Assembly (NCBI GenBank): GCA_964384035.1
Contig: CAYLIB010000002.1
Span: 28,704 to 92,703 of the forward strand
From: an uncultured Candidatus Saccharibacteria bacterium
GTDB taxonomy: Bacteria; Patescibacteriota; Doudnabacteria; UBA920
Direction of reading: 5' to 3'
Length of the DNA: 64,000 nt
Positions 1,430 to 15,000 of this stretch are shown piece after piece (position 1 is the stretch's first letter; each line of letters opens with the position of its first letter). Below the pieces are notes generated by a model. It saw only the letters and a list, made by a program, of their open reading frames with translations. It was not told the origin of the DNA and made no database searches. The translations under genes and the position numbers were made by a program.

Positions 1430-2224
1430 TTAGTCATCGCTTGAGCTAGCGCCACCCCCTCCAGAACTGCCGCCACCAAAACCACCCCAGCCACTCCCGC
1501 TCGAAGAAGATGAAGAAGACCAGGAACTTCCTGAATCGTATGAGCTACCAGAGGAGCTGATGTCTATCCCTAAGCGGTTCAGTATCCATAGGATAATCAG
1601 AAGCACGACAATAATTATCAATATTGTTAGTATTGGGTGACGAGCGAACCACGAAGGCTCCACCTTTGGTTTCTGTCCCGGTGGGTAAGCATGCGTGTCG
1701 AGGTGGTTCTTCACCTCGTGAGCAATGAGCACGAGTGCTTGCGAAAGTGCCCCAGTCTCTCCGGCTTTATACCGGGCAATAAGTGGTTTCCGTTTACCAA
1801 GTATTCCACCATCGCCCGCTGCACCATCGGTTAGCGCGTACTCCAAGCCATAACCCACTTCAATCCGCCATTTTTTTTCTTTGGCGGTGTAGAGAATGAG
1901 TATGCCTCGATCGCGGTCTTCGTTTGAGTAAGTGGTACCTTTCGGTCCAATGCCCCACTTTCGAAACAGGTCATTGGCGAAGTCCTCAACAGAACCCCAA
2001 CCTTCAATGTTGGGCACAGTCACGACTGCGATCTGAATATTTTTCGCTTTGTCGTAATCTTCAAGTTCTTTTTCGAGCGACTCTACATCGCTCTTTTGCA
2101 TGAGGCCCGCGAAGTCATTCACCAATTGCGGAGGGTTAGAAACCTCCGGCAGCTTTGCTTTGTTCTCGGCCATCGCTGTCAGTGAAAGAGCGAACATCGC
2201 CACAAGCAACATTATTTTTTTCAT
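1430..2224 (-). CDS. TPM-domain protein (TLP18.3/Psb32/MOLO-1 phosphatase-like fold) with signal peptide, C-terminal TM segment and Gly/Ser-rich tail
   Basis: NDFAGLM...LEKELEDYDKAKNIQIAVVTVPNIEGWGSVEDFANDLFRKWGIG is the typical TPM/DUF477 core. The likely true start is MKKIM at 2224 (GGAGGG SD) rather than the track start at 2239. The tail is an SSGSSYDSGSS..GGGG low-complexity region. Confidence 0.75.
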   Translation of the reverse strand: MKKIMLLVAMFALSLTAMAENKAKLPEVSNPPQLVNDFAGLMQKSDVESLEKELEDYDKAKNIQIAVVTVPNIEGWGSVEDFANDLFRKWGIGPKGTTYSNEDRDRGILILYTAKEKKWRIEVGYGLEYALTDGAAGDGGILGKRKPLIARYKAGETGALSQALVLIAHEVKNHLDTHAYPPGQKPKVEPSWFARHPILTILIIIVVLLIILWILNRLGIDISSSGSSYDSGSSWSSSSSSSGSGWGGFGGGSSGGGGASSSDD

Positions 2225-2325
2225 TGAAAAACCCTCCAAAATTTGGTTTGTTCGAAAATTTTGCTGGTAAAACCGTTAATTATCGCACTTTTTGTCTATT
2301 TTGTCAATATTTTTATAAATACTAT

Positions 2326-2402: not shown

Positions 2403-3746
2403 ATGAATTTTCAGAAAATCATCGCACAAACAACTCTGTTTGTGTTGTTTGCAGTCCTTTCGGTGAATCTCGTTATCGCCCAAAGCCTTCCAAGACCCAA
2501 CGGTTATGTGAATGACTTCGCGGGGAAACTCACCGCCGAAGAGCGAGCTCATCTCGAAAACAAACTGGTGAATTTCGAAAAAAACACCAGCATTGAATTC
2601 GCTATTGCTGTGGTCCCTACCCTAGAAGGGCGAGCACCAAAAGACTTCACCGACAACCTGGCGAGAAGCTGGGGTTTGGGGAAGAAAGACAGGAACAATG
2701 GGATCCTGCTTGTTTGGGCGCCAGTCGAACGCCAAACCTACGCTACAGCAGGTGATGGTCTCCTGGAAGATATAAACAGTGAGGTCATAACAAGTCTGTT
2801 AAACGAGCAGATGAAGCCCTACTTCGTAAAAGGGTATTTCTTCGCCGGACTCGACGCGTTTACAAGCGCGGTTATTTCCCACCTCGGTGAATACCCATGG
2901 GAAAAACGCGCTGAAGTGCGGGGGTTGAATGCGCAGAAAGCGCGGGAAGAAGCCGAGAGGCAACATGAAAGTGACATCCTATTCATGAAAGTGGGTGGCA
3001 CCTTTCTGCTTATATGTGGAGTTTGTCTGTTACTCTACGCTCTCTATGACAACCGGCGTTCCGTTAATCAGCTCAAGGCTAGACTGGGTGTTATTGCCCA
3101 GAATCTAGATAAGGCTTTATCAGAACGGCAGTTAGTGAGGGGTTTAATAGCTTTGCTTAAGGAAGAAATCCCTAACCAAGATGTATCCGAACTCGAGTCA
3201 GAGTTCGAAAAACATCTTGGGAAAGTAGCTGAGTTGCGTTCTGAGCTCGAGTTATTGCTCGGTTCAAAGATCAAAAAAAACCACCGGGAGCAGATTAACG
3301 AGCTTGAGAAGAAGTCAGAAAAAGAGCGGGATCTGAAGAAGGCGATTGAACGCAAGATCGAAAAGATCAAGCACGCCAAAGCAGAAGTTGAAAAGCTGAT
3401 GGCTTCAATTGACCCGAAGATCTTCTCTACCGATGGTATGGAAATACACTCAGGAAGGGAAGAAGAAGTTGCCGAAATGCTCAGTACCGCGCGAGCGAAT
3501 TACGAACAAGGGGTCCAGCTCTTCGGGGTCTCCGGCCAAACGGTGGTGAATTTCCTCATCATCTACAGCCTGCTCTCTGACTCTGTCTCGGGCGCCGAGT
3601 CTGCAACAAACTACGCATCCGGCGCTTCCTCCTACTATTCAAGCAACAGTTCTTCCTACGGTGTCCAACCCTCCCAGCCCACCCAAACAATTAGTTTCGG
3701 CGGGGGAGGCGGCTTCGGCTCCGCAGGCGGAGGAATGAGCTACTAA
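2403..3746 (+). CDS. TPM-domain protein with signal peptide, TM segment, long coiled-coil region and Gly/Ser-rich C-terminus
   Basis: PNGYVNDFAGKLTAEERAHLENKLVNFEKNTSIEFAIAVVPTLEGRAPKDFTDNLARSWGLG is a TPM core. The central E/K/L-rich heptad-like segment and the SSYYSSNSSSYG...GGGGFGSAGGG tail follow. SD ggaggtaga. Confidence 0.75.
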   Translation: MNFQKIIAQTTLFVLFAVLSVNLVIAQSLPRPNGYVNDFAGKLTAEERAHLENKLVNFEKNTSIEFAIAVVPTLEGRAPKDFTDNLARSWGLGKKDRNNGILLVWAPVERQTYATAGDGLLEDINSEVITSLLNEQMKPYFVKGYFFAGLDAFTSAVISHLGEYPWEKRAEVRGLNAQKAREEAERQHESDILFMKVGGTFLLICGVCLLLYALYDNRRSVNQLKARLGVIAQNLDKALSERQLVRGLIALLKEEIPNQDVSELESEFEKHLGKVAELRSELELLLGSKIKKNHREQINELEKKSEKERDLKKAIERKIEKIKHAKAEVEKLMASIDPKIFSTDGMEIHSGREEEVAEMLSTARANYEQGVQLFGVSGQTVVNFLIIYSLLSDSVSGAESATNYASGASSYYSSNSSSYGVQPSQPTQTISFGGGGGFGSAGGGMSY

Positions 3747-3771
3747 ATCTTTGTCTACAGGAAAGGGAAAT

Positions 3772-4134
3772 ATGACAGTTCAAGTAGCAGATAAGTCAGC
3801 AATACTGTTTCGGTTTAGGCAACTGCTTTCACCTGGGCAATTCGTCGAGGACGCCCGAGTCGAGCGGGTCTGCGGAGCAAAGTTGCACCGCTTACTCAGG
3901 CCTTGGTTTTTTAGTAGTCGAGACTTTGCAGAGTCAGACTTGGTCAGCTTGCTCGTCAAATGCAAATTGGCCGAAAATGATGCGGAAGCAATGGAGATTA
4001 TTGAGCTTCTCTGCAACCGCTCAAATCGTATTGACTACCATAGGCTCTACGAATTCTACTTCATCCGGCAGACGGACAAAGCCGGAAAGGTAAATTACAG
4101 AATCGCCTACGATGATCCCAGTGAAGGGGATTGA
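3772..4134 (+). CDS. hypothetical protein (120 aa), GC-rich island gene
   Basis: ORF with SD (aggaaaggga) before the second ATG; no recognisable motif. The track ORF starts at 3751. Confidence 0.5.
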   Translation: MTVQVADKSAILFRFRQLLSPGQFVEDARVERVCGAKLHRLLRPWFFSSRDFAESDLVSLLVKCKLAENDAEAMEIIELLCNRSNRIDYHRLYEFYFIRQTDKAGKVNYRIAYDDPSEGD

Positions 4135-4139
4135 TTTTC

Positions 4140-4175
4140 AGCGCTAAATAGCCTCTATTTAGCGCTCTTTTTATA
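4140..4175 (+). terminator. intrinsic terminator
   Basis: agcgctaaata-gcctc-tatttagcgct followed by cttttt. Confidence 0.6.
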
Positions 4176-4184
4176 TTTTAAGTA

Positions 4185-4213
4185 TTGACAAAAACTCATT
4201 TTTAATTTATAAT
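4185..4213 (+). promoter_or_regulatory. near-consensus sigma70 promoter
   Basis: TTGACA at 4185-4190, 17-bp spacer, TATAAT at 4208-4213. Confidence 0.55.
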
Positions 4214-4302: not shown

Positions 4303-4983
4303 ATGAAATTGGCAAGATTATTTATTGACCTCGATGACTGCCTAATCAACACAGGCGCTATCATCGAAGCTCATAAGCAGATTTTGCTCCGCAATGGTGT
4401 TTCGCCAGAAGCGTTGGCCGAATACTTTGCGTCTCGGGGAAATGCACCGGACTATTACCGGTCACGCACGTTTTACCTTATGTCTAACGCGGAGGTTGTG
4501 AAAACTCTCTTCGGGCTGAATGAGGAGCAGGTAAAGCGAATCCTCGCCGAAACCACCGCTTTCATTTTCGACTTCAAGCGTTATATCTACGACGATGCTT
4601 GGTTCTTCCTCGAAACTTTCAAAGTCGACCCCAACACAGAAATAGTGCTTGTCACAGTCGGCGGAGAAGGCTGGCAGGGGATAAAGATAAGTGCTTCGGG
4701 TATCCAGCGTTACTTTACACGCGTTGCCATCACTGCCGGCGGTAAAAAACCAGACTCAATTGCGCAGATTCAGGCCGAAGAAGGTGATCAGGGGGTAATA
4801 ACTTACTTCCTCGACGACAAAGGAAGTGAGGTTGCGGGCGTCAAAAAAGCCTTCCCAGACATCACCTGCATTCACGTCAACCGAGGTGATGAAGCGCGCT
4901 ACGCGACCGATAAGTCTGAGAGTCATGACTACGTCGTGAAAGATCTGCGAGAGGCTGTAAACATTATCAAGACTCTGTCATAA
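4303..4983 (+). CDS. HAD-superfamily hydrolase (phosphatase-like)
   Basis: N-terminal FIDLDDCLINT is HAD motif I (DxDx[T/V]). The chosen start is MKLARLF at 4303 with a GAGGGA SD; the track ORF begins at 4255. Confidence 0.7.
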   Translation: MKLARLFIDLDDCLINTGAIIEAHKQILLRNGVSPEALAEYFASRGNAPDYYRSRTFYLMSNAEVVKTLFGLNEEQVKRILAETTAFIFDFKRYIYDDAWFFLETFKVDPNTEIVLVTVGGEGWQGIKISASGIQRYFTRVAITAGGKKPDSIAQIQAEEGDQGVITYFLDDKGSEVAGVKKAFPDITCIHVNRGDEARYATDKSESHDYVVKDLREAVNIIKTLS

Positions 4984-4999
4984 AAGACAGATTTTTTTA

Positions 5000-5029
5000 T
5001 TGACAAAAAAAACTTTTTATGATATAAAT
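5000..5029 (+). promoter_or_regulatory. sigma70-like promoter
   Basis: TTGACA at 5000-5005, 18-bp spacer, TATAAA at 5024-5029. Confidence 0.45.
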
Positions 5030-5083
5030 AAATTTAAATCCAAATAACTTTTGCAATGGTTAACCATAGGAGGAATTAGTTTT

Positions 5084-6256
5084 ATGACACCCACTTTTCA
5101 AATGGAGTCCATTCTGAGGCTAGTTATGAGCGAGCAGGTGGACAGAGCGGAAGCGATCGCGCGACTGAATAAAGAACTATCTAACTGGGGAAATGAGAGT
5201 CTTATTAGGCTCTACACCCAAGCTGTGGAAGACCAAAACTTCTATCTTTCCGCCGAACGTGTAGACGCGTTTCATATTCTCTGTAATTTGCTGGTGTCCC
5301 GAAGGTTAATTAGTATGCGGGAATTCCAAGCAAGAAAGAATATGACTGTCCTATACAATGTTGGTTTCAGTCAGAGCGGTCTTCCTCTGGATATGGAAAC
5401 TGGCGAAGACCTGACCGAAGTTCTGAAGATATACAGTCTTATGAAATTTGGCTCAGTAGCCGACATTGCGTGGTTCGCGAAGAAGGTTTCCGAACGAATC
5501 ATCCAGGGTCTGGTTTCTGGTCAGAGCATCTTGACTGTATTCGAGAAAGCACGCAGTCAAAACCAATACGTGGCTCTGCTCTCGCCGGGTTCCAGGAACG
5601 TCAGGCTTGCGCAAGACTTGGTCTACGTTCAAGTAGTTAAGAAAGTGAATGTTTGGCTAGCTTTAAACGGGTACCCAACCATTATGCTCGTAAGAGCACC
5701 CCGCTTTCAGTCCTCAAAGGCAAATTACGCCGAACTTAGCGTAGCCGAGAGGTTAAGAGAAATGCGAGAGGTCTTACCGGGCGACGACTTCTTCTCCCGT
5801 GGTGTGCACCTGCTTTTCTCCGACGATGTTCGCATTACTGGTGCATCGGCAGATTGGACAGAGATTAACTGTCTCAACAGAGGTGGTTTATCTTTCGGAT
5901 CCATTTTCTGCATGGCCGTAGATCCACTCTTGGTTCAAGACGATCCCGGGGTAGAACAACGCATTAACCACTTTCATGTAACCCCTAAGCTGGACTCAAC
6001 AACCGCATACATATTGAATCAGCCTGGATTCATTCCGGTCCAGCGCTTACTGAGACTCCTGCTGAATGTCTCAAATCGAGAAAGTCTCGCTGGTTTCCTT
6101 GGTGGGGTTTATGACCATGCGTTGGTTGAAGTCTATAGTGGTGCTATGTCGAATGACTACCTGGCCGACGATCGGTACGCTCCCTCGCTCGATATTTGGA
6201 AGAAAGAGTTGCATCGTCGAAATCTCGTAGACAGTAATGGATTGTTGCTGGGTTAG
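5084..6256 (+). CDS. phosphoribosyltransferase (PRTase)-like protein, paralogous to the C-terminal two-thirds of the next gene
   Basis: Contains a PRPP-binding-type motif LLFSDDVRITGAS (four hydrophobics, DD, xxTG) and SPGSRNV. Collinear similarity to the downstream protein (YSLMKFGSVADIAWFAKKV vs YSLMKFGGVHEVKWFASRV; LNQPGFIPVQRLLRLLL vs LNQPDFRPVQRMLRLIL). The start is ATG 5084 after AGGAGG. Confidence 0.6.
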   Translation: MTPTFQMESILRLVMSEQVDRAEAIARLNKELSNWGNESLIRLYTQAVEDQNFYLSAERVDAFHILCNLLVSRRLISMREFQARKNMTVLYNVGFSQSGLPLDMETGEDLTEVLKIYSLMKFGSVADIAWFAKKVSERIIQGLVSGQSILTVFEKARSQNQYVALLSPGSRNVRLAQDLVYVQVVKKVNVWLALNGYPTIMLVRAPRFQSSKANYAELSVAERLREMREVLPGDDFFSRGVHLLFSDDVRITGASADWTEINCLNRGGLSFGSIFCMAVDPLLVQDDPGVEQRINHFHVTPKLDSTTAYILNQPGFIPVQRLLRLLLNVSNRESLAGFLGGVYDHALVEVYSGAMSNDYLADDRYAPSLDIWKKELHRRNLVDSNGLLLG

Positions 6257-6271
6257 TAATATGTATTTACC

Positions 6272-6297
6272 TATGCTTGGAGCATAGGTTCTTTTTT
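6272..6297 (+). terminator. intrinsic terminator
   Basis: cctatgct-tgga-gcatagg followed by ttcttttttt. Confidence 0.6.
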
Positions 6298-6305
6298 TGT
6301 AAAAA

Positions 6306-6334
6306 TTGACAAAAACCCATTTTTAAAGTATAAT
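6306..6334 (+). promoter_or_regulatory. near-consensus sigma70 promoter
   Basis: TTGACA at 6306-6311, 17-bp spacer, TATAAT at 6329-6334. Confidence 0.55.
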
Positions 6335-6484
6335 CAGCCGTTTAAATTGTGTGTATTTATAATCGGCAGTGCTAATTTCCGCTGAATAAGCTGTTTGCAC
6401 GGCACTCTTTTTCAGTAGCTAAAGTTCTTTAGCTTCTGAAAATCGGTTTTTCTAAAAGAATACAAAATTTGGAGGAAAGGAAAA

Positions 6485-8332
6485 ATGGATTCAAGACAAA
6501 GATTCGCGAGTCTCGCCGTCCATACCATCAATCAGCCCAACGAATTAAGTCATCCGTTTCAACAGCGTTACAGCCGAATGAAGCACGGTGACCCTAAGGC
6601 CATTGTGGAATCGGCCGGCAAGCTGATTTACGCAATGAAGCAGGATCCGGTTATCGCCGAAGCAATCGAAAGAGGCGACGACATCATCCTGACATCATCT
6701 GCCTTCGGAAGTGTACCCACGGCGATCTATGCAGTAGTCTTAGCAATGGTTCCGCAACTCGCGGAAATCGGCGTTAAGGCTGAAGTTGTTAAAATCAATC
6801 GTTCAGGCAACTTCCGGGTAAACAACTACGGAAGTATGAACGCCACCGAAAGAGGCGCAAGTCTCAAAGAAAGAAAAATCAGTCTTTCCGAGGAGGACCT
6901 CAACAGGATCAGGGGCAAGCTCGTGGTGGTCGTGGACGATATTAAAGTCACGGGTAGTCACGAAATCGCTATTACCCAACTCCTTGAAAGCACGGAAGTC
7001 CGCTTGGTCAGGTTCTGCTACTTAGTAAGTTTTACAAAAGAACTAGCAGAAACCTTCCCACAAGCCGAAGACCTCTTCAATAGCGCTGTCGTGCGCACAC
7101 TCGCAGACCTGCTTCATTTCACCAACGATGAGTTTGTGGTTAACGCCCGGACCATCAAAATGATTTTGTCTACAAAGGAATACGTGGACAAAACCAAGGC
7201 TGAAATGCTCGCCGATCTCTACGAGTATCTGGCCCACGACGACGACCAAACAATTCTGAAGTTCTACCGCGCGGCCACTTCCGAAGATGGCTATTGCTAC
7301 TTCCCCGAGTACGTTGACGGCTTCCATGTGCTTGCAAACGTCGCGATAGCTCGGGGTCTCGTTTCACTCAAAGAGTTCCAGCAAGTTAAAAATGCTGTTG
7401 TGGTCAACAACCTCACGGTTGGCGGCCGTGGTACGTACTTGGATGTAGACTCAGGCGATAACCTGGGTGAGACAACGCGCATGTATAGCCTAATGAAGTT
7501 CGGTGGCGTGCATGAAGTTAAGTGGTTCGCCAGTCGTGTAGCCAAGCAGGTAATAGGCGAACTCAAAACGCCAGGCAGTGGCTTCAGGAAACTCTTCGAG
7601 CGAGCAAGGGACAACAACGAACATGTGGTTATGCTTACTCCGGGTTCAAGGAACGTTGTGTCTGCACAACATTCCATTTTTGAAACCGCGGTTAAGTCTA
7701 TAAACGCGTGGTTAGCACTTAACGGATACCCGACAATCATCTTCTGTAAGTTGACCCGATTTTCTTCAGGCGCAGCTAACTACTCTGAGCTGAGCGTGTC
7801 GGAGAGGGTTAAGGAACAGCGCAGTAAAGGTTTAGGAGTATCTGCACTACCTAGCGAAGCTTTTTTTGCTCCAGGGGTACATATCATTTTCGCAGATGAT
7901 GTTCGTATCTCAGGGGCTTCCGCGGATCATTTCGAGATTCATGCGTTACTGCATGGTGCCCTGTCATGCAGTTCCATCTACTGTCTGATGGTCGATCCTC
8001 GTATCGCCATCGCCAATCCGGCATTCGAAAACGAGCTGAATCAGGTCGTCATTAAGGGTGGTTTGGATGATCAAGTTGCCTACATCCTTAATCAGCCAGA
8101 TTTCAGACCCGTTCAAAGAATGCTCCGACTCATTCTTCAAGAATCGAACAGGGGAACGCTGGCTACTTTCTTAGAGAACCTCGCCTCTACCGAAGCAATC
8201 TCTCGTATCTACGTGGCTGCTTTAGAAAGCGAGTTCTATCAAGATAGTCGTTACAGAGATTCCGTTCCTTTACTTTCTGCCGAGCTACGGAAACGTGGGG
8301 TATTGGATGAAGACGGTTTGGTAATTTGCTAG
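6485..8332 (+). CDS. fusion protein with two PRTase-type domains (N-terminal PRTase plus a module homologous to the preceding gene)
   Basis: The N-terminal domain carries the classic PRPP loop KLVVVVDDIKVTGSH. The C-terminal module carries IIFADDVRISGAS and aligns with the 5084-6256 product. SD ggaggaaagg. Confidence 0.65.
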   Translation: MDSRQRFASLAVHTINQPNELSHPFQQRYSRMKHGDPKAIVESAGKLIYAMKQDPVIAEAIERGDDIILTSSAFGSVPTAIYAVVLAMVPQLAEIGVKAEVVKINRSGNFRVNNYGSMNATERGASLKERKISLSEEDLNRIRGKLVVVVDDIKVTGSHEIAITQLLESTEVRLVRFCYLVSFTKELAETFPQAEDLFNSAVVRTLADLLHFTNDEFVVNARTIKMILSTKEYVDKTKAEMLADLYEYLAHDDDQTILKFYRAATSEDGYCYFPEYVDGFHVLANVAIARGLVSLKEFQQVKNAVVVNNLTVGGRGTYLDVDSGDNLGETTRMYSLMKFGGVHEVKWFASRVAKQVIGELKTPGSGFRKLFERARDNNEHVVMLTPGSRNVVSAQHSIFETAVKSINAWLALNGYPTIIFCKLTRFSSGAANYSELSVSERVKEQRSKGLGVSALPSEAFFAPGVHIIFADDVRISGASADHFEIHALLHGALSCSSIYCLMVDPRIAIANPAFENELNQVVIKGGLDDQVAYILNQPDFRPVQRMLRLILQESNRGTLATFLENLASTEAISRIYVAALESEFYQDSRYRDSVPLLSAELRKRGVLDEDGLVIC

Positions 8333-8356
8333 ATCAAATTCATCCAGGGGTAAAGA

Positions 8357-9001
8357 ATGAAAACGATTCTTCAAGATTTCGACGGAGTGATCTTCGACTG
8401 TGTCAGGTATATTGCAGACTTCAAGTCAGCAATTGTAAGTCGTGGAGTCTCGCAAGAGGCGCTCTCTGCTTACTTCAAGGCGCCTAGTCAATTTCCCCAA
8501 TATGCCTCTAGAGCCTATTCACTAATTAAGCACCCTGAAATACGACGGGAATGGTTAGGGGAATTAGGGATAGAGGCCGTTGATTACGCCATAGAAACTG
8601 TGGTCAAAAGGGGTGTGGATTATGTCTTCCCAGACGCTTGGGATCTTCTCAAGGTCGCACATAAGTCAGGAAGGCAGATATTACTCACTCAAGGAGCCAG
8701 AGAGGCACAGGAGTTGAAAGTTGTAAACTCGGGAGTCTGTCAGTATTTTGATCATTTACTGATGGGCACAGCCTGTAAGGGCCAGGTTATTTCTGAGTTT
8801 CTAGGCGATCAAACACAGGCTGTCGAAGGCTGGTTTTTGGACGATCGTGGTAAAAATCTCACCGTAGTCAAACAAGTATGTCCTAACATTAGGACTATCC
8901 TCGTCTGGCGTGAAAACGGTGCATATAACCACGAAAACCCAACCGACTACGACCATAAGGTGGAAAACCTAGACGAAGCTAGGCGTTTAATCTATTCATA
9001 G
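8357..9001 (+). CDS. HAD-superfamily hydrolase (phosphatase-like)
   Basis: N-terminal ILQDFDGVIFDC is HAD motif I, and the size (214 aa) fits a HAD phosphatase. Confidence 0.65.
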   Translation: MKTILQDFDGVIFDCVRYIADFKSAIVSRGVSQEALSAYFKAPSQFPQYASRAYSLIKHPEIRREWLGELGIEAVDYAIETVVKRGVDYVFPDAWDLLKVAHKSGRQILLTQGAREAQELKVVNSGVCQYFDHLLMGTACKGQVISEFLGDQTQAVEGWFLDDRGKNLTVVKQVCPNIRTILVWRENGAYNHENPTDYDHKVENLDEARRLIYS

Positions 9002-9060: not shown

Positions 9061-9208
9061 CGGATTTAATTTTTCTATGATTTTAGGGTTATGGACCAAA
9101 TTCGGTATTAAATACTGCTTTGGTTCATGGCCGTAAGTTGAAGCCTAAAAACTTCGTCTGCTTCGGTTGTCTAACAAAAGTTCGAAAATCCTTTAGGAGG
9201 TAGAACAA

Positions 9209-10381
9209 ATGAAATCCACGTTTCGTGTTGTGTTGAGTTTGCTCATCACAGTCCTTTTCTCAACTTTCGCTTTCGCTGGTGAGCCCGCTACAGGCTCCCT
9301 CCTGGACAATGCTCACCCGCACGCGCGGGCCTGGCTCATCGGTGTCTTCGCGGTCATCATCGTCGGCTTCCTGGTCTTCGACCTTGGCTTCATGAACAAA
9401 AAAGCCCACGGCGTTACCACCAAAGCCGCCACGCTTCAGACCCTCTTTTGGATCGCCGTTGCCTGCGGGTACGGTGGGCTTATCTACTACTTCGTCGGCC
9501 ACGAACCCGCTGCTCAGTTCTTCAGCGCGTACATCACCGAGAAAATGCTCTCCGCAGACAACCTCATGGTCATTATGATGCTCTTCATGTTCTTCGACGT
9601 GAAGGAGGCATTTCAGCACCGTGTGCTGTACTGGGGTATTCTCGGCGCCGTCGTTCTGCGCGGTTTGTTCATTGGCAGTGGTACGCTCATCGTTAGTCTG
9701 TTTCACCCCGTTCTTTACCTGTTCGGTGCGGTTCTCATTTGGTCCGGCATCAAACTCATGGCAAGCGGAGACGACGAGGAGGAGCAGGATTTCGAGAAGA
9801 ACAGAACTCTTATCTTTCTGAAGAAATGGCTCCCGCTCAGTAGCGGACCACACACAGGTCATTTTTTCACCATTGAAAACGGCAAGAAAGTCGGCACTAT
9901 TCTGTTGCTGACCTTGGCGATGGTTGAGGTTACCGATCTCATCTTCGCTGTGGACTCAATTCCCGCAGTCTTCGCCATCACGACCGATTTCTTCATCGCT
10001 TTCACCAGTAACATTTTCGCCGTTATGGGACTGCGGGCGCTATTCTTCATCGTTGAAAAAGTGCTCAAGCAATTCCCGCACTTGCAAAAAGGCATTGCCT
10101 TCGTGCTGGTATTCATCGGTGGCAAAATGTTCCTGGACCTCGTGGATCCCGCCGTCGGCTTCCTGAGTAAGACCTTTGGCTTCGCACATACCGAAGGGAG
10201 TTGGGAATATCATCTGTCATCAGTCCAGTCTTTCATGGTTATCATCGTTGCCCTTGGTCTCGCCATGGGTTACTCGGTGATCTCGGTGAGAATGGGTTGG
10301 ACTACGATTGATGATCCCGAAGCCGCCTTCGACGATTCCGATCTGAAACCCGCCACACCGGCAACAAACGAAAACAGCTAA
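9209..10381 (+). CDS. terC: TerC-family integral membrane protein
   Basis: Polytopic membrane protein with the TerC-family hallmarks, including Asp/Glu residues inside TM helices (MVEVTDLIFAVDSIPAVFAIT...) and about 390 aa. It directly precedes two TerD genes. Confidence 0.7.
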   Translation: MKSTFRVVLSLLITVLFSTFAFAGEPATGSLLDNAHPHARAWLIGVFAVIIVGFLVFDLGFMNKKAHGVTTKAATLQTLFWIAVACGYGGLIYYFVGHEPAAQFFSAYITEKMLSADNLMVIMMLFMFFDVKEAFQHRVLYWGILGAVVLRGLFIGSGTLIVSLFHPVLYLFGAVLIWSGIKLMASGDDEEEQDFEKNRTLIFLKKWLPLSSGPHTGHFFTIENGKKVGTILLLTLAMVEVTDLIFAVDSIPAVFAITTDFFIAFTSNIFAVMGLRALFFIVEKVLKQFPHLQKGIAFVLVFIGGKMFLDLVDPAVGFLSKTFGFAHTEGSWEYHLSSVQSFMVIIVALGLAMGYSVISVRMGWTTIDDPEAAFDDSDLKPATPATNENS

Positions 10382-10539: not shown

Positions 10540-11175
10540 ATGGCTTTCCTAATTCAAAAAGGCGGATCATTCCAAATCTCCAAGGGGATTTTCAATCTCG
10601 GAATTGGGTGCAAATGGGATCCGCAACTCAATCACTCGGAAGAAGAGTTCGACATTGACGTCCACGCCTTCGCTCTCAGGAATCACACAGGGTTCGATCG
10701 TAATGGGAGCCATGCGCTCACATACGCGAACGTCGCAAATTCCAGAAACCCGGACGGCTTGCTGGTCGAAAACAGCGACGGCTCGTTCCAGACGCGCGAC
10801 GGCTCCATGCATTCGCGTGGTGACAACAAGACGGGCGAGACCAAACCCGGCGAAGACGCCGAGTATCTCACGATCTTTACGCAGAAACTGCCAAAAGAGA
10901 TCGACGAGATCGCTCTCTATATAACCATTCACGATGCCGTGAAGCGCAAGCAGAATTTTGGACGCGTCAGGAATGCCAAAATCCACATTGACGACGCCGG
11001 CTCACACAGCGTGCTGGCCAAGTACGACCTGAGTACCGACTTCCCAGACGCAACCTGCGTCCATGTCGGTTCTTTCCTCCCAGACCCGAGCGGTGGAGGG
11101 TGGTCGTTCCAGGCCGCGGACTCGCCGTCCAACGCAAGTCTGTACCAGGTTCTTGAAGGTTACAAATTGGTCTAA
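10540..11175 (+). CDS. terD: TerD-domain protein (tellurium-resistance/stress family)
   Basis: MAFLIQKGGSFQISKG...NLGIGCKWDPQ...FDIDVHAFAL and DNKTGETKPGEDAEYLTIF...IDEIALYITIHDA are a TerD fold with the calcium-binding GDN-TGEG..E motifs. SD aaggagg. Confidence 0.8.
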   Translation: MAFLIQKGGSFQISKGIFNLGIGCKWDPQLNHSEEEFDIDVHAFALRNHTGFDRNGSHALTYANVANSRNPDGLLVENSDGSFQTRDGSMHSRGDNKTGETKPGEDAEYLTIFTQKLPKEIDEIALYITIHDAVKRKQNFGRVRNAKIHIDDAGSHSVLAKYDLSTDFPDATCVHVGSFLPDPSGGGWSFQAADSPSNASLYQVLEGYKLV

Positions 11176-11272: not shown

Positions 11273-11452
11273 TACGAGTCTTAATAAAGAAATTTAAAGA
11301 CAAAGATCTGCACTTTAAAACTAGATCTCGAGAAAACTCGCAATCGCCCGAATTACTTTCGGCTCGAGGTTTAGCTTAGTGTGTAGGGTCTTGTGTCAAA
11401 AACGCAGGGCCAAGTAATCAACAACAAAATTCCATTCGGAGGAAAACAGATC

Positions 11453-12055
11453 ATGGAAATTTCCAAAGGCGAATCGTTTCCCGTCAAAGGTGGCGGCGCA
11501 GATTACAGCGGTAATTACTTCGGTGGCGGATGGGACGCCGGCGACGGTTATGACCTGGACATCCACGTCATCGGACTGAAGGGTGGCAAACCGGTCATGT
11601 CCCACGTCCTGAGCTGGTTCAACAGCCCGCAGTACAACGGCGCAGGCTTGCTGGACTACGATGCCGCAACGGGCACGTTCAAGACCAAGGACGGCTCGCT
11701 TGTTCACAACAAAGACAATCGCACCGGCGAGGGCGACGGCGACGACGAGAACGTCATTCTCCACCTGGACAAAGTCCCGACGGACATTGACGAATTGTTG
11801 TTCATCGTTGACATTTACGAGGCGAAGAAGAACGGCCAAGACTTCGGCAAGGTCAAAAATGCGTTCGTTCGCGTCGTGCAGGGCACCAATCCCGATGGCA
11901 AAGAAACGATTCGCTACAACCTGTCGAACGACTACGCCGGTAAGACCTGCGTGCAAGTCGGCTCACTGACTCGCGCCGCCGGAACCACCTGGACGTTTAC
12001 CGCCCAAGGCATCGGCTTCACGGGCACGATCCAACAGGTCATGGAGACGTTCTAA
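11453..12055 (+). CDS. terD: TerD-domain protein (second paralog)
   Basis: Canonical TerD Ca-binding motif DNRTGEGDGDDENVILHLDKVP...IDELLFIVDIYEA. The start is MEISKG at 11453 after GGAGGA; the track ORF at 11393 lacks an RBS. Confidence 0.8.
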   Translation: MEISKGESFPVKGGGADYSGNYFGGGWDAGDGYDLDIHVIGLKGGKPVMSHVLSWFNSPQYNGAGLLDYDAATGTFKTKDGSLVHNKDNRTGEGDGDDENVILHLDKVPTDIDELLFIVDIYEAKKNGQDFGKVKNAFVRVVQGTNPDGKETIRYNLSNDYAGKTCVQVGSLTRAAGTTWTFTAQGIGFTGTIQQVMETF

Positions 12056-12134: not shown

Positions 12135-13289
12135 ATGCCAGATCGCAAACCAACAATAATTCAGCTACCTGGGCGGGATACAAATGAGCTCCCGTCTCTG
12201 GCCGAAGAACGGAAGCCTACGGTCATCAACTTGAATCCAAATCAATGTGGTGAAACAGATGGGCCTAGAGTGCCGCATATTCTCCACCTTGAAGAACACG
12301 AAGATGTCCGTGACACCCAAAGACTACCTACAGTCATTATGGTCCCCAAAGTCGTGGAAGAGGTCCCGGCACCAGCCAGAACGCCTACAGTGGTAAAGTT
12401 CCTTTTCGAGGAAAAACCACTCGTGCCTTCTCCGGCTGTCGCCGCGACTATTCTGAAACTTCCCGGGGCAGAAATTCGGGCGAGATTGAAAGTAAGCGAT
12501 GGCGACCTCGCCGAGCTATTCCCAAATGTGCCTGATGCAATCCGGGAAAAAGCTAGGGTGGTAGTCGTAAGCACGAATGTTGATACGCTGTTTACCCAGA
12601 CCTGCGGGTCGTGGGGGCAGTTAAGTCAACAGCAAATGCTTTCACTCTCTGAAGAAATCGCCAAATTGAATTCGCATAATCTGCTGGCAGAAATGCGGGC
12701 AGAGATGCGCGCGATTTACGATTTCTTCATGACTTTCAAAGCAAGAGTCCAAGAAGAACCAAAAAGTATGCTAGATTTCCTTTCCAGCAAAACTCCCAAA
12801 ACTGCCAAACAGCGGTTCGACGAGCTTATGCTGGAATTAGAGAATAAAGCATCCAAGTTGGGTGCTCGTCTGCCGGAGATTCAAAAACTCCAATTGCAGA
12901 TCGCTGAAACTTCTGGTAAGCTCGCAAAGGTTCGTGAGTCCATGCAAGTGGACATGGTGGCTGGGCAGCTCGTCGAATTCAGAGGGATGTTAGGCGAAGT
13001 TAAAGCTGACAAAGAGTTTGTAAAGTCTGATCTTGAAATTCTAAACAGTCGAATCGAAAGCCTAAGGGCTTCGGTTAGTACTGTAGATATTTTGCGAGAC
13101 CAGCTCACTGCTCTCTATTTGGAAGTCGCAACTTTGCAGACAACTATCCAGAATACTCTATTGGTCGAAGTTCCAGAATGGCGGTTATCCGTCAGTCTTA
13201 CAGGCTTCGAACAGTCGGGTAGGGTTTCAAATAGTCAGGGTTGGTCTTTCGTGGACCAGCTCATTCAAAAACTGAAGTCAAAACCATAA
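12135..13289 (+). CDS. hypothetical Pro-rich / coiled-coil protein (possibly TelA-like; unproven)
   Basis: 384 aa. The N-terminal 120 aa are Pro/Val-rich with a repeated PTV(I/V) motif (KPTIIQLP, KPTVINL, LPTVIMVP, TPTVVKF), and the C-terminal 250 aa are predicted helical coiled coil. Size and position between TerD and the vWA gene recall TelA/KlaA-type proteins of ter operons. No motif is recognised with certainty. Confidence 0.5.
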   Translation: MPDRKPTIIQLPGRDTNELPSLAEERKPTVINLNPNQCGETDGPRVPHILHLEEHEDVRDTQRLPTVIMVPKVVEEVPAPARTPTVVKFLFEEKPLVPSPAVAATILKLPGAEIRARLKVSDGDLAELFPNVPDAIREKARVVVVSTNVDTLFTQTCGSWGQLSQQQMLSLSEEIAKLNSHNLLAEMRAEMRAIYDFFMTFKARVQEEPKSMLDFLSSKTPKTAKQRFDELMLELENKASKLGARLPEIQKLQLQIAETSGKLAKVRESMQVDMVAGQLVEFRGMLGEVKADKEFVKSDLEILNSRIESLRASVSTVDILRDQLTALYLEVATLQTTIQNTLLVEVPEWRLSVSLTGFEQSGRVSNSQGWSFVDQLIQKLKSKP

Positions 13290-13299
13290 CGAGGGAAAT

Positions 13300-14013
13300 A
13301 TGTTCGAAGTTACGAAAGAAGCGCAGAAAGTCAAAAACTTTCTCATTTCAAAGATGGTCAGAAACGTCAAAGCCGAAGTCATCGGTCTCGTTGATAAGAG
13401 CGGCTCCATGCAGGGTTTGTATAAGTGTGGTGCCGTCCAGGAAGCAATCCAGCGCGTTCTGCCAGTCGGCTTGAATTTCGACGACAACGGCAACGTGGAC
13501 GTGTTCACTTTCGCCGACGGCGAAGGTAGTGTCTTCGAAGCCGCAGGTCTCGACACGAACAACTTCGAAGGCTACGTCCAGCGGGAAATTCTCAACAAGA
13601 ACGGTCATTGGGGTGGCACCGACTATGCGCCGGCCATTACCGCGGTTCTGAAGTCGAAAGGGTTCGCCAAGAAATCTGGGGGTGGGTTTTTCGGTGGAGG
13701 AAGTCTGTCCCTGCAGGAGAACTCGACGTCCGGTTATCCGGCGCTTATCTACTTCTTCACGGATGGCGCGAATGACGACGAAAGCGCGACCGAGAAGCTT
13801 CTTGAGGCGATGCAGTATGCACGAGTGAATGCCTACGTCTTGTTCGTTGGCATTGGAGACAACCCGTTCCGCTTCTGTATTCGCGTTGCTGATAAATTCG
13901 ACAACACTGGATTCGTCCGCGTGTCAGACCTCGCCGGCGTCGCCAACAACGACAAGATTTACGAGATGCTGTTGCCAGACGAACTTTGCTGCTGGCTGCG
14001 CAACAAGAAATAA
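13300..14013 (+). CDS. von Willebrand factor A (vWA) domain protein, TerY-like
   Basis: MIDAS motif VDKSGSMQG (DxSxS), then TFADGEG... and FFTDGANDDE, which resemble further MIDAS loops. 237 aa, adjacent to TerD/TerC as in terY-type loci. Confidence 0.7.
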   Translation: MFEVTKEAQKVKNFLISKMVRNVKAEVIGLVDKSGSMQGLYKCGAVQEAIQRVLPVGLNFDDNGNVDVFTFADGEGSVFEAAGLDTNNFEGYVQREILNKNGHWGGTDYAPAITAVLKSKGFAKKSGGGFFGGGSLSLQENSTSGYPALIYFFTDGANDDESATEKLLEAMQYARVNAYVLFVGIGDNPFRFCIRVADKFDNTGFVRVSDLAGVANNDKIYEMLLPDELCCWLRNKK

Positions 14014-14169: not shown

Positions 14170-15000
14170 ATGAACAATCCGGTAGTAATGGCCGAATCGC
14201 TAATTTTCGCTCTGGTTGTGTTGACTTACGCTTTCGCAGCCAAGCTATGTTGGGACAGGGTTAGCAAAATGCACGCTATTCTTCGTTACAACAACACAGC
14301 CTATGGTATCAGGACATTCTCCCTCATGACGGCAATTTCGATTGCGCTTTATGGGACCCTTAAAACGGTTAGTCAGCAGGAATTCGGTAATTATTTCTTG
14401 CAACTGGTAATTAATGGGTTAGTGGTAACAATCTTTGTTCTGATTGCCCAGTTTGTAAATGATGTTTTCATTATCACTGGGTTAAATAACAACGAAGCAG
14501 TCGCAAGAAAAAATAATGCAGTAGCAGTGACCGAAACAGGAAGTTCTATCGCTACGGCAGTAATAGCTTACGGAGCTTTCTCAGGTGGCTTAGGAAGTCG
14601 TTTTGTGCAGTCCGTAGTCTTCCTGATACTAGGTCAAGCCGTGCTAATTGCTGTTTTTCATCTGTTCGACTGGTTACACCCAGCTGATCTTCTCGGGAAT
14701 ATTCGCGCCGGAGAAGTACCGAGTGCAATTGTGAGTTCTGGAATGCTAATAGCTGTGAGTCTCATTCTGAAGAGTGCTATTCAGGGGCAGTTCTTTGGGT
14801 GGGGGAAAGGATTCGCTGAGTTCTTTTTTGCAGCGGCTATGGGTCTTGGTCTGCTTGTAACCGCTTACAATTTTCTTTGTCGGAGACTCCCGTGGGTCCC
14901 AAACATGGGAGAGGAAGTTAAGGAAAGCGAGAGCGCATTCGTTAGTACCGCAGGTTTGTTGATTTTTGCTTTCATGATTTCAGTCGCATTTCAAAACTAA
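14170..15000 (+). CDS. polytopic integral membrane protein, hypothetical (Gly-zipper-rich; internally repeated)
   Basis: 276 aa with about 8 hydrophobic helices and an apparent internal duplication of GxxxA/G helices. SD taaggagagg. Intermediate GC. Confidence 0.55.
   Translation: MNNPVVMAESLIFALVVLTYAFAAKLCWDRVSKMHAILRYNNTAYGIRTFSLMTAISIALYGTLKTVSQQEFGNYFLQLVINGLVVTIFVLIAQFVNDVFIITGLNNNEAVARKNNAVAVTETGSSIATAVIAYGAFSGGLGSRFVQSVVFLILGQAVLIAVFHLFDWLHPADLLGNIRAGEVPSAIVSSGMLIAVSLILKSAIQGQFFGWGKGFAEFFFAAAMGLGLLVTAYNFLCRRLPWVPNMGEEVKESESAFVSTAGLLIFAFMISVAFQN

Follow-up and report, generated by a model that had tools for sequence, protein, structure and literature searches.

Three PRTase_3 units and two HAD phosphatases beside Ter genes on a Patescibacteria contig

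Genes and phosphoribosyltransferase units at 4303 to 9001

We analyzed a 64-kb stretch of DNA (contig CAYLIB010000002.1, positions 28,704 to 92,703 of the forward strand; here called the window and numbered from its first letter) from an uncultured Candidatus Saccharibacteria bacterium, focusing on four genes at 4303 to 9001. Two adjacent phosphoribosyltransferase (PRTase) genes in this block stand between two genes for HAD-superfamily phosphatases. The open reading frames were confirmed at the coordinates given in an initial annotation of the same DNA and encode proteins of 226, 390, 615, and 214 amino acids (aa). Ribosome-binding sites of the GGAGG type lie upstream of the ATG codons at 4303, 5084, and 6485, and the Joint Genome Institute (JGI) gene calls for an identical metagenome contig gave the same four lengths. 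The first gene (HAD1; 4303 to 4983, forward strand) encodes the 226-aa phosphatase, which was identified from its motifs and its homology to HAD2 and has a helical insertion, or cap, between motifs I and II. The last (HAD2; 8357 to 9001, forward strand) encodes the 214-aa phosphatase, identified from the Pfam Hydrolase model and its HAD motifs. Of the two genes between them, the first yields a 390-aa product from the ATG at 5084 or a 401-aa form from a start at 5051, both ending at 6256, and the second (6485 to 8332) yields the 615-aa product.

Both PRTase products passed the gathering score (28.7 bits) of PF15610, PRTase_3 ("PRTase ComF-like"). The 615-aa protein scored 109.8 bits in two stretches, and the shorter protein scored 37 bits (E value, 3e-9) over profile positions 22 to 262 of 264, corresponding to residues 127 to 381 of the 401-aa form. 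The general model PF00156 (Pribosyltran) stayed below its cutoff (19.4 versus 26.3 bits), touching only the first phosphoribosyl pyrophosphate (PRPP) loop of the 615-aa protein, and did not match the 390-aa protein. The initial annotation had placed three PRTase-type domains in the two genes, and this count was borne out by the PF15610 matches to both proteins and by the presence of all three PRPP-loop motifs: LVVVVDDIKVTGSH at residues 146 to 159 of the 615-aa protein (nucleotides [nt] 6920 to 6961), IIFADDVRISGAS at residues 467 to 479 of the same protein (nt 7883 to 7921), and LLFSDDVRITGAS at residues 243 to 255 of the 390-aa protein (nt 5810 to 5848).

The repeating unit of these proteins is ∼300 aa long and consists of a PRTase core of ∼190 aa followed by a helical tail of ∼100 aa. 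Two such units, ancient paralogues here called N-type and C-type, stand in tandem in the 615-aa protein. When residues 1 to 300 were aligned with residues 301 to 615 by hhalign, using 15-sequence subalignments, the two halves matched over 261 columns with a probability of 99.8% (E value, 3e-29), and the two helical tails alone matched with an E value of 1.6e-16. The N-type unit (residues 1 to 300; 6485 to 7384, forward strand) is supported by PF15610 (residues 10 to 231 on profile positions 5 to 223), an AlphaFold2 model, and Foldseek, and it contains a YSRMKHGDP motif, an SSAFGSVPTA loop, the PRPP loop, and then the helical tail. The C-type unit (residues 301 to 615; 7385 to 8332, forward strand), supported by the second Pfam stretch and by hhalign, has a YSLMKFG motif, a PGSRNV loop, the PRPP loop, and a helical tail that carries PVQRxxRL.

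The product of 5051/5084 to 6256 aligned with residues 224 to 614 of the 615-aa protein at 41% identity over 391 columns (BLASTP; E value, 3e-108), in agreement with the collinearity noted initially. The collinear "C-terminal 400 aa" of the 615-aa protein is, however, not a single module: it comprises the helical tail of the first unit and the entire second unit. In the 390-aa protein, the corresponding parts are an N-terminal helical region (approximately residues 1 to 85; 5084 to 5338, forward strand), delimited by BLASTP, AlphaFold2, and hhalign, and a C-type PRTase_3 unit with core and helical tail (5339 to 6256, forward strand). Because its N-terminal ∼85 residues are homologous to the N-type helical tail of the 615-aa protein, they are probably the leftover of a lost unit; judged by homology, then, this protein is a C-type unit that kept part of the tail of an upstream N-type unit, and we interpret its gene as a two-unit copy that became truncated. 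The C-terminal extension (PVQRxxRL) that the initial annotation described is indeed shared by the two proteins. It is not a separate add-on: it sits inside the PRTase_3 profile, and the first PRTase core of the 615-aa protein is likewise followed by a diverged counterpart (NARTIKxIL...).

AlphaFold2 models built on alignments of 15 to 17 homologues had a mean predicted local distance difference test score (pLDDT) of 88.2 and a predicted template modeling score (pTM) of 0.85 for the 615-aa protein, and 88.5 and 0.88, respectively, for the 390-aa protein, in which helices span residues 3 to 84. A Foldseek search with the 615-aa model returned HGPRT, APRT, and PyrR at a probability of 1.0; the best structural neighbor of the units was ComFC, and the five-stranded parallel beta-sheet core of type I PRTases was present. 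All three units were placed in the PF15610 PRTase family. Sequence searches of the PDB with the family profile gave generic PRPP-loop matches only (E values of at least 0.04), PyrR being the best but weak match for one unit type, and a search with the 390-aa protein alone gave nothing. The structural alignments put the units at ∼10 to 20% identity to the classical type I PRTases (HGPRT, APRT, OPRT, and UPRT), from which they differ in the hood and tail regions. The curated apt model reached 18.8 bits against a cutoff of 185.85, and the comF model TIGR00201 reached 18 bits against 233.55. No CxxC pairs were found at the N termini, where ComF and ComFC have a 4-Cys zinc finger. Compared with ComFC of Helicobacter pylori (7p0h), the units of the window therefore lack the zinc finger, and they also have an extra helical tail of ∼100 aa and lie in a Ter rather than a competence context.

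Conservation, phosphatase partners, and relatives

The PRPP-loop pattern of a hydrophobic strand, two acidic residues, xx(x), and T/S-G-x-T/S was found in VVVVDDIKVTGSH, IIFADDVRISGAS, and LLFSDDVRITGAS. Within each unit type, the 15-sequence alignment showed no variation in the DD pair or the G of this loop, and the acidic pair was retained in all three units of the window. Across a wider set, the acidic pair and T/S-G were kept in 179 of 183 units (119 of the 123 N-like and all 60 C-like units). It is important to note that the automatic unit count based on hidden Markov models (HMMs) merged adjacent units and was used solely for this measure of PRPP-loop retention; architecture classes were read from protein lengths and profile coordinates. 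Other conserved positions were type specific. Units in the 15-sequence alignment begin with the invariant residues YSxMKxG, and the loop after strand 1, assigned by position to the pyrophosphate (PPi) loop, is conserved as SSAxG in N-type and GSRNV in C-type units. A low-pLDDT segment after strand 2, assigned by position to the flexible loop, carries a conserved R...Y...ER. An arginine after strand 2 is typical of ComFC-like PRTases (PMC5512222); here all C-type units of the alignment have it, as do 13 of 15 N-type units. The suggestion that duplicated modules might act as pseudo-enzymes finds no backing in sequence conservation, given this loop retention and the type-specific invariant residues; the alignments give no sign of pseudo-enzyme decay, and catalysis is predicted. 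The systematic difference between the PPi loops of N- and C-type units suggests divergent roles.

The two phosphatases flank both PRTase genes, as first described, and each has the four catalytic motifs. Aligned with their homologues from the related loci L031, L004, and L009, motifs I to IV (DxD, T, K, and DD) were intact in both: DLDD, VTVGG, KK, and LDDKG in HAD1, and DFDG, LTQGA, CK, and LDDRG in HAD2. The proteins were 28% identical to each other (E value, 7e-20). HAD2 narrowly passed the Pfam Hydrolase cutoff (26.5 versus 26.4 bits); HAD1 had no Pfam match and a weak match to TIGR02253. HAD1 was 36% identical to the HAD protein encoded after the two-unit PRTase of L004, and HAD2 was 38% identical to the one encoded downstream of a 625-aa PRTase homologue in L031. 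Among 25 distinct related loci screened in Patescibacteria and Bacteroidota, 13 have a HAD gene directly next to PRTase_3, as does L031, which was checked separately. The usual ratio is several PRTase units to one HAD (two units to one in L004 and L009, three to one in L031), which fits a single enzyme complex feeding a single phosphatase step. L031 has one HAD only; in the lineage of the window, the upstream HAD1 was either added or retained. Separately, a gene for PgpA (phosphatidylglycerophosphatase A) was seen at the margin of the Ter/PRTase_3 clusters of L003 (15932 to 16495) and L004 (10344 to 10904), which are unrelated contigs from Patescibacteria; in L003, no HAD was detected near the three-unit PRTase fusion.

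PRTase_3 is a small and rare family. A word-seeded search of 5.8 billion proteins recovered only 19 relatives, and exhaustive profile searching of 1.84 billion representatives with HMMER recovered 939 at E values of ≤1e-3, 678 at ≤1e-10, and 173 at ≤1e-30. Their lengths fall into classes of one unit (∼280 to 330 aa), two units (∼520 to 690 aa), three units (∼920 to 950 aa), and apparently four units (∼1150 to 1190 aa). Proteins of 390 to 421 aa with the same combination of tail remnant and C-type unit as in the window occurred in at least eight clusters at 50% identity (P0016, P0017, P0033, P0041, P0044, P0055, P0056, and P0058).

We examined the neighborhoods of relatives through an exact-protein lookup (six contigs) and a scan of species-representative genomes (22 loci), a collection that does not include the genome of the window. 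Genes for TerD, vWA-TerF-like proteins, TelA, TerC/DUF475, or TerB lay beside PRTase_3 in all six exact-protein contigs and in most of the 22 genome loci. The Ter-less loci were mostly short contigs or distant single-unit loci, and queries derived from the window found no Ter genes there. Patescibacteria (Moranii-, Collier-, and Saccharibacteria) had two to four units, fused or in adjacent genes, in all loci examined except L017, and Bacteroidota (Hymenobacter, Cytophagales, and Cyclobacteriaceae) had one. Several of the Patescibacteria metagenome-assembled genomes carry obviously automatic names. In addition, the records of L010, L013, L014, and L016 are titled "uncultured Pseudomonadales" or "Bacteroidia," and these titles are probably automatic mislabels because the PRTase_3 units of these loci cluster with Patescibacteria versions in the unit tree.

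A rough neighbor-joining tree of the units separated an N-type and a C-type clade, a third paralog type from other three- and four-unit systems, two Saccharibacteria paralog clades, and a clade of single units from Bacteroidota. The closest relative of the window, L031, has the same pairing of a solo gene and a fusion (404 and 625 aa) with its single HAD, and the two-unit proteins of the two loci share 55% identity. Within the C-type clade, the 390-aa unit and the 404-aa L031 protein are sisters, so the extra C-type copy predates the split between the lineages of the window and L031 and is not recent.

Ter-type surroundings and transcription signals

The genes directly downstream of HAD2, which the initial annotation did not mention, encode TerC, TerD, and vWA-TerF proteins and are the key to interpreting the block. 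They begin with a TerC-family integral membrane protein (9209 to 10381, forward strand; PF03741; E value, 4e-48), followed by two TerD-domain proteins (10540 to 11175 and 11393 to 12055, both forward strand; PF02342; E values, 2.6e-27 and 1.7e-35). For the second TerD gene, the JGI call is 200 aa long, with its start at ∼11453. After a gene for a 384-aa helical protein (12135 to 13289, forward strand) comes one for a vWA-TerF-like protein (13300 to 14013, forward strand; PF10138; E value, 2.9e-30). The cluster is closed by a gene for a DUF350 membrane protein (14170 to 15000) with its own putative promoter and terminator. This DUF350 protein is also encoded on the identical contigs and was seen in none of the other relatives. 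In L031, a TerC protein and a TerD domain are fused in a 599-aa protein (6435 to 8234), which supports a physical association of TerC with TerD.

The 384-aa protein lies between TerD and vWA-TerF, the position of TelA in related clusters, and had no Pfam match above threshold. Homologues occupy the same position in L004 and L009, and the counterpart in L031 (386 aa, matched by position only) had a faint TelA match. A BLASTP comparison of the 384-aa protein with a bona fide TelA from L006 was negative, as was the Pfam scan for TelA. The protein may be a TelA that has diverged greatly or a TelA replacement.

Upstream of HAD1 are genes for two membrane proteins with TPM domains (TPM_phosphatase/Psb32-like) and a 127-aa orphan (1430 to 2239, reverse strand; 2403 to 3746, forward; and 3751 to 4134, forward). 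A TPM-domain protein is also encoded ∼3 kb from the PRTase_3 gene in the Cytophagales locus L026 (13916 to 14659). The remainder of the window is housekeeping chromosome, with BipA, G6PD, glycogen genes, type IV pilus genes (T2SSE and T2SSF), and tRNAs. The BipA protein shared 77 to 81% identity with proteins labeled Candidatus Doudnabacteria or Patescibacteria group, which places the host among the Patescibacteria (CPR). Neither an ATP-grasp amidoligase nor a TIM-barrel C-C lyase turned up when the genes called from 1 to 22 kb were scanned with Pfam.

Pattern matching placed a perfect sigma-70-type promoter (TTGACA-17-TATAAT) upstream of HAD1 (4185 to 4213, forward strand), preceded by a terminator-like hairpin (4140 to 4166). 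The same arrangement, a hairpin at 6269 to 6289 and then a perfect match at 6306 to 6334, lies upstream of the 615-aa gene (forward strand). Six perfect 12-of-12 matches occurred in the 64 kb (at 4185, 6306, 44669 on the reverse strand, 47816, 62092, and 63262), whereas shuffled sequences predict 0.01; the consensus therefore carries meaning in the genome studied here. The matches at 4185 to 4213 and 6306 to 6334 have almost identical spacers (TTGACAAAAAC[T/C]CATTTTTAA..TATAAT), and their 21-nt core, TTGACAAAAACYCATTTTTAA, was found only at these two sites in the window. The two PRTase/HAD promoters may thus share an operator and be coregulated. A recent segmental duplication of promoter-gene units was considered and rejected, as the similarity of the two upstream regions is confined to ∼35 bp of promoter and the duplication behind the 390-aa gene predates the split from L031.

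Most intergenic gaps between 4135 and 14170 contain, as pattern matches only, a terminator-like hairpin and then a TTGACA/TATAAT-type promoter, and the genes of the Ter region look to be transcribed individually or in pairs rather than as one operon. The 5' leaders of TerC (9067 to 9208) and of the second TerD gene (11279 to 11392) folded much better than shuffled sequences (z scores, −3.57 and −3.79). Rfam gave no match on the long leaders, including no yybP-ykoY-type riboswitch before TerC, and the TerC leader was not conserved in L031, L004, or L009.

Proposed pathway and its alternatives

Ter clusters confer resistance to tellurite, colicins, and phages. Their two-enzyme biosynthetic module, a PRTase with a HAD phosphatase, was reportedly predicted by Anantharaman, Iyer, and Aravind (Mol Biosyst, 2012). 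The passages on Ter modules in three later papers describe sets of two or five enzymes that always include a PRTase and a HAD, with a ribonucleoside or nucleoside-like signal as the predicted product (PMC11994780; PMC7824862; PMC5512222). Two of these papers, in their summaries of earlier work, credit the PRTase-then-HAD pathway to the 2012 study (PMC11994780; PMC7824862), and one, in the part that covers these modules, states that TerB almost always accompanies them and that the five-enzyme form, found in Bacillus, Enterobacteria, and Acinetobacter, combines two PRTases of other families with an ATP-grasp amidoligase, a TIM-barrel C-C lyase, and a HAD (PMC11994780). The initial proposal that phosphoribosyl transfer followed by HAD dephosphorylation yields a nucleoside matches the Ter prediction as these passages give it.

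The window resembles the two-enzyme module, as described there, in its PF15610 family, its HAD partner, its TerC/TerD/vWA-TerF-like neighborhood, and the proposed chemistry from PRPP and a base through a nucleoside monophosphate (NMP) to a nucleoside. It differs in its PRTase_3 complement, where a solo gene with a truncated linker and a tandem fusion supply three units of two paralog types in place of a single unit; in having two HADs of a subfamily barely recognized by Pfam; and in its Patescibacteria host, with no TerB found. With the five-enzyme module, as outlined in the same source, it shares the TerD/TerC linkage, more than one PRTase with a HAD, and a predicted nucleoside-like product. 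However, its PRTases are paralogues of one family rather than members of two, and no ATP-grasp, HpcH/citrate-lyase-like TIM barrel, or StiP/TRSP-type PRTase was found in the window.

The genes at 4303 to 9001 probably form the biosynthetic arm of a Ter-type cluster on the chromosome, in the two-enzyme form multiplied to three PRTase_3 units and two HADs. In the proposed mechanism, the PRTase_3 units would assemble as a hetero-oligomeric PRTase, with the fused N-C pair acting as a built-in pseudo-heterodimer. This assembly would displace pyrophosphate from PRPP with a nucleobase-like acceptor to give a ribonucleoside 5'-monophosphate, from which the capped HAD phosphatases would strip the 5'-phosphate, leaving a free nucleoside-like metabolite. 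Under chemical stress or phage attack, the metabolite would then act together with the membrane-associated TerD/TerC apparatus or be sensed by it. The data directly support the family, the fold, the conserved motifs, and the linkage of the genes; we infer catalysis, the acceptor, the sequence of steps, the connection to TerD/TerC, and hetero-oligomerization. PRT-family proteins are mostly dimers (PMC9005727), and hetero-oligomers are proposed here because, in addition, Patescibacteria keep at least two diverged and often fused units (except in L017), with several units per HAD.

Several observations weigh against this pathway. ComFC, the closest solved structure, has a PRT domain that binds PRPP and NMPs without demonstrated transferase activity (PMC9005727). 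A literature search on PRTase_3, PF15610, and ComF-like PRTases returned nothing relevant and no assayed member, and a search for experimental work on Ter PRTases found none. No HAD was detected near several three-unit fusions (L003, L007, and L010). TerB was not found among the scanned genes of the window, although the relative L003 has it, and the window contains no ATP-grasp, TIM-barrel lyase, or base-synthesis gene that would supply the acceptor. Finally, the case for hetero-oligomerization draws on fusion patterns and on the two-unit model (pTM, 0.85).

Among the alternatives, the apparent transcription units suggest two parallel pathways, HAD1 with the 390-aa PRTase and the 615-aa PRTase with HAD2, each making its own nucleoside-like product from a different acceptor. 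The block appears to form two transcription units, each with a terminator, a perfect promoter match, one PRTase gene, and one HAD gene, and both the systematic PPi-loop difference between unit types and the low identity of HAD1 and HAD2 are consistent with separate products. Yet L031 combines the same PRTase pair with a single HAD, and L004 and L009 serve two units with one HAD; the 390-aa unit and the C-type unit of the fusion belong to the same paralog clade, so that a different acceptor is not implied; and the near-identical promoters suggest coregulation. On balance, we regard independent pathways as unlikely.

The units could instead be noncatalytic sensors of PRPP or nucleotides, like PyrR, PurR, and possibly ComFC, that make TerD/TerC responsive to the nucleotide pool or to changes that phages induce in it. 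The ligand binding of ComFC without known catalysis, the PyrR match, and the frequency of multiplied ligand-binding units in sensors all point in this direction. What makes such a role improbable is the conserved small-molecule HAD phosphatase partner, which is hard to explain across three phyla for a pure sensor, together with the strong conservation of the flexible-loop residues. Moreover, no DNA-, RNA-, or signaling-output domain was fused in the 150 listed relatives, as judged from length and stretch data.

An effector that depletes or modifies nucleotides or PRPP in defense, like the PRTase toxin ShosT of Shosta, seems very unlikely. The resemblance to ShosT, which is the one point in favor, is limited to the generic PRPP loop; PADLOC found no defense system, nothing resembling an antitoxin accompanies the units, the locus lies in the chromosome among housekeeping genes (BipA, G6PD, and glycogen genes), and the HAD partner better suits biosynthesis. 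Least credible of all are ordinary purine/pyrimidine salvage PRTases of a nucleotide-auxotrophic cell, or ComF proper in DNA uptake: Patescibacteria rely on salvage and DNA uptake, and T2SSE and T2SSF pilus genes lie in the window, but most of the loci examined have Ter genes next to PRTase_3, the family is extremely rare, the units score far under the curated apt and comF cutoffs and lack the zinc finger, and an adjacent phosphatase would reverse salvage.

Within the Ter biosynthetic reading, a more elaborate version can be imagined in which Patescibacteria use an obligate assembly of two to four units (N-type, C-type, and third type), joined or docked by way of their helical tails, for successive or combinatorial phosphoribosyl transfers. 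Its product might then be no simple nucleoside but, for example, a doubly ribosylated or otherwise elaborated signal, with the second HAD removing the second phosphate. We offer this version as speculation and rate it as quite unlikely; if true, it would mean a lineage-specific small-molecule signal in organisms of otherwise minimal metabolism.

The initial annotation knew of no description of this architecture, which overstated its novelty. The family is in Pfam, the PRTase-HAD logic is published, and the fold class, Ter linkage, HAD partner, and chemistry are likewise already known as predictions. No description of the multi-unit PRTase_3 arrangement itself was found in the literature, in which the 2012 study is represented by the papers that cite it. 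Relative to the descriptions that we found, the new elements here are the ∼300-aa unit structure, the N-/C-type paralogy with a third type, the near-constant multi-unit state in Patescibacteria, the solo form that joins a tail remnant to a C-type unit, and the doubled HAD in the lineage of the window. The window itself is mainly a reidentification of a known predicted module with an unusual copy number.

PRTase_3 with a HAD is the simplest form of the Ter pathway predicted in 2012, having no ATP-grasp or lyase, and would be the most tractable route to identifying its metabolite. That Patescibacteria almost always carry several diverged units points to a hetero-oligomeric enzyme, and the natural fusions suit structural work. 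If the Ter biosynthetic reading is right, organisms of reduced metabolism keep a dedicated PRPP-consuming pathway that would be tied to a membrane stress or defense apparatus.

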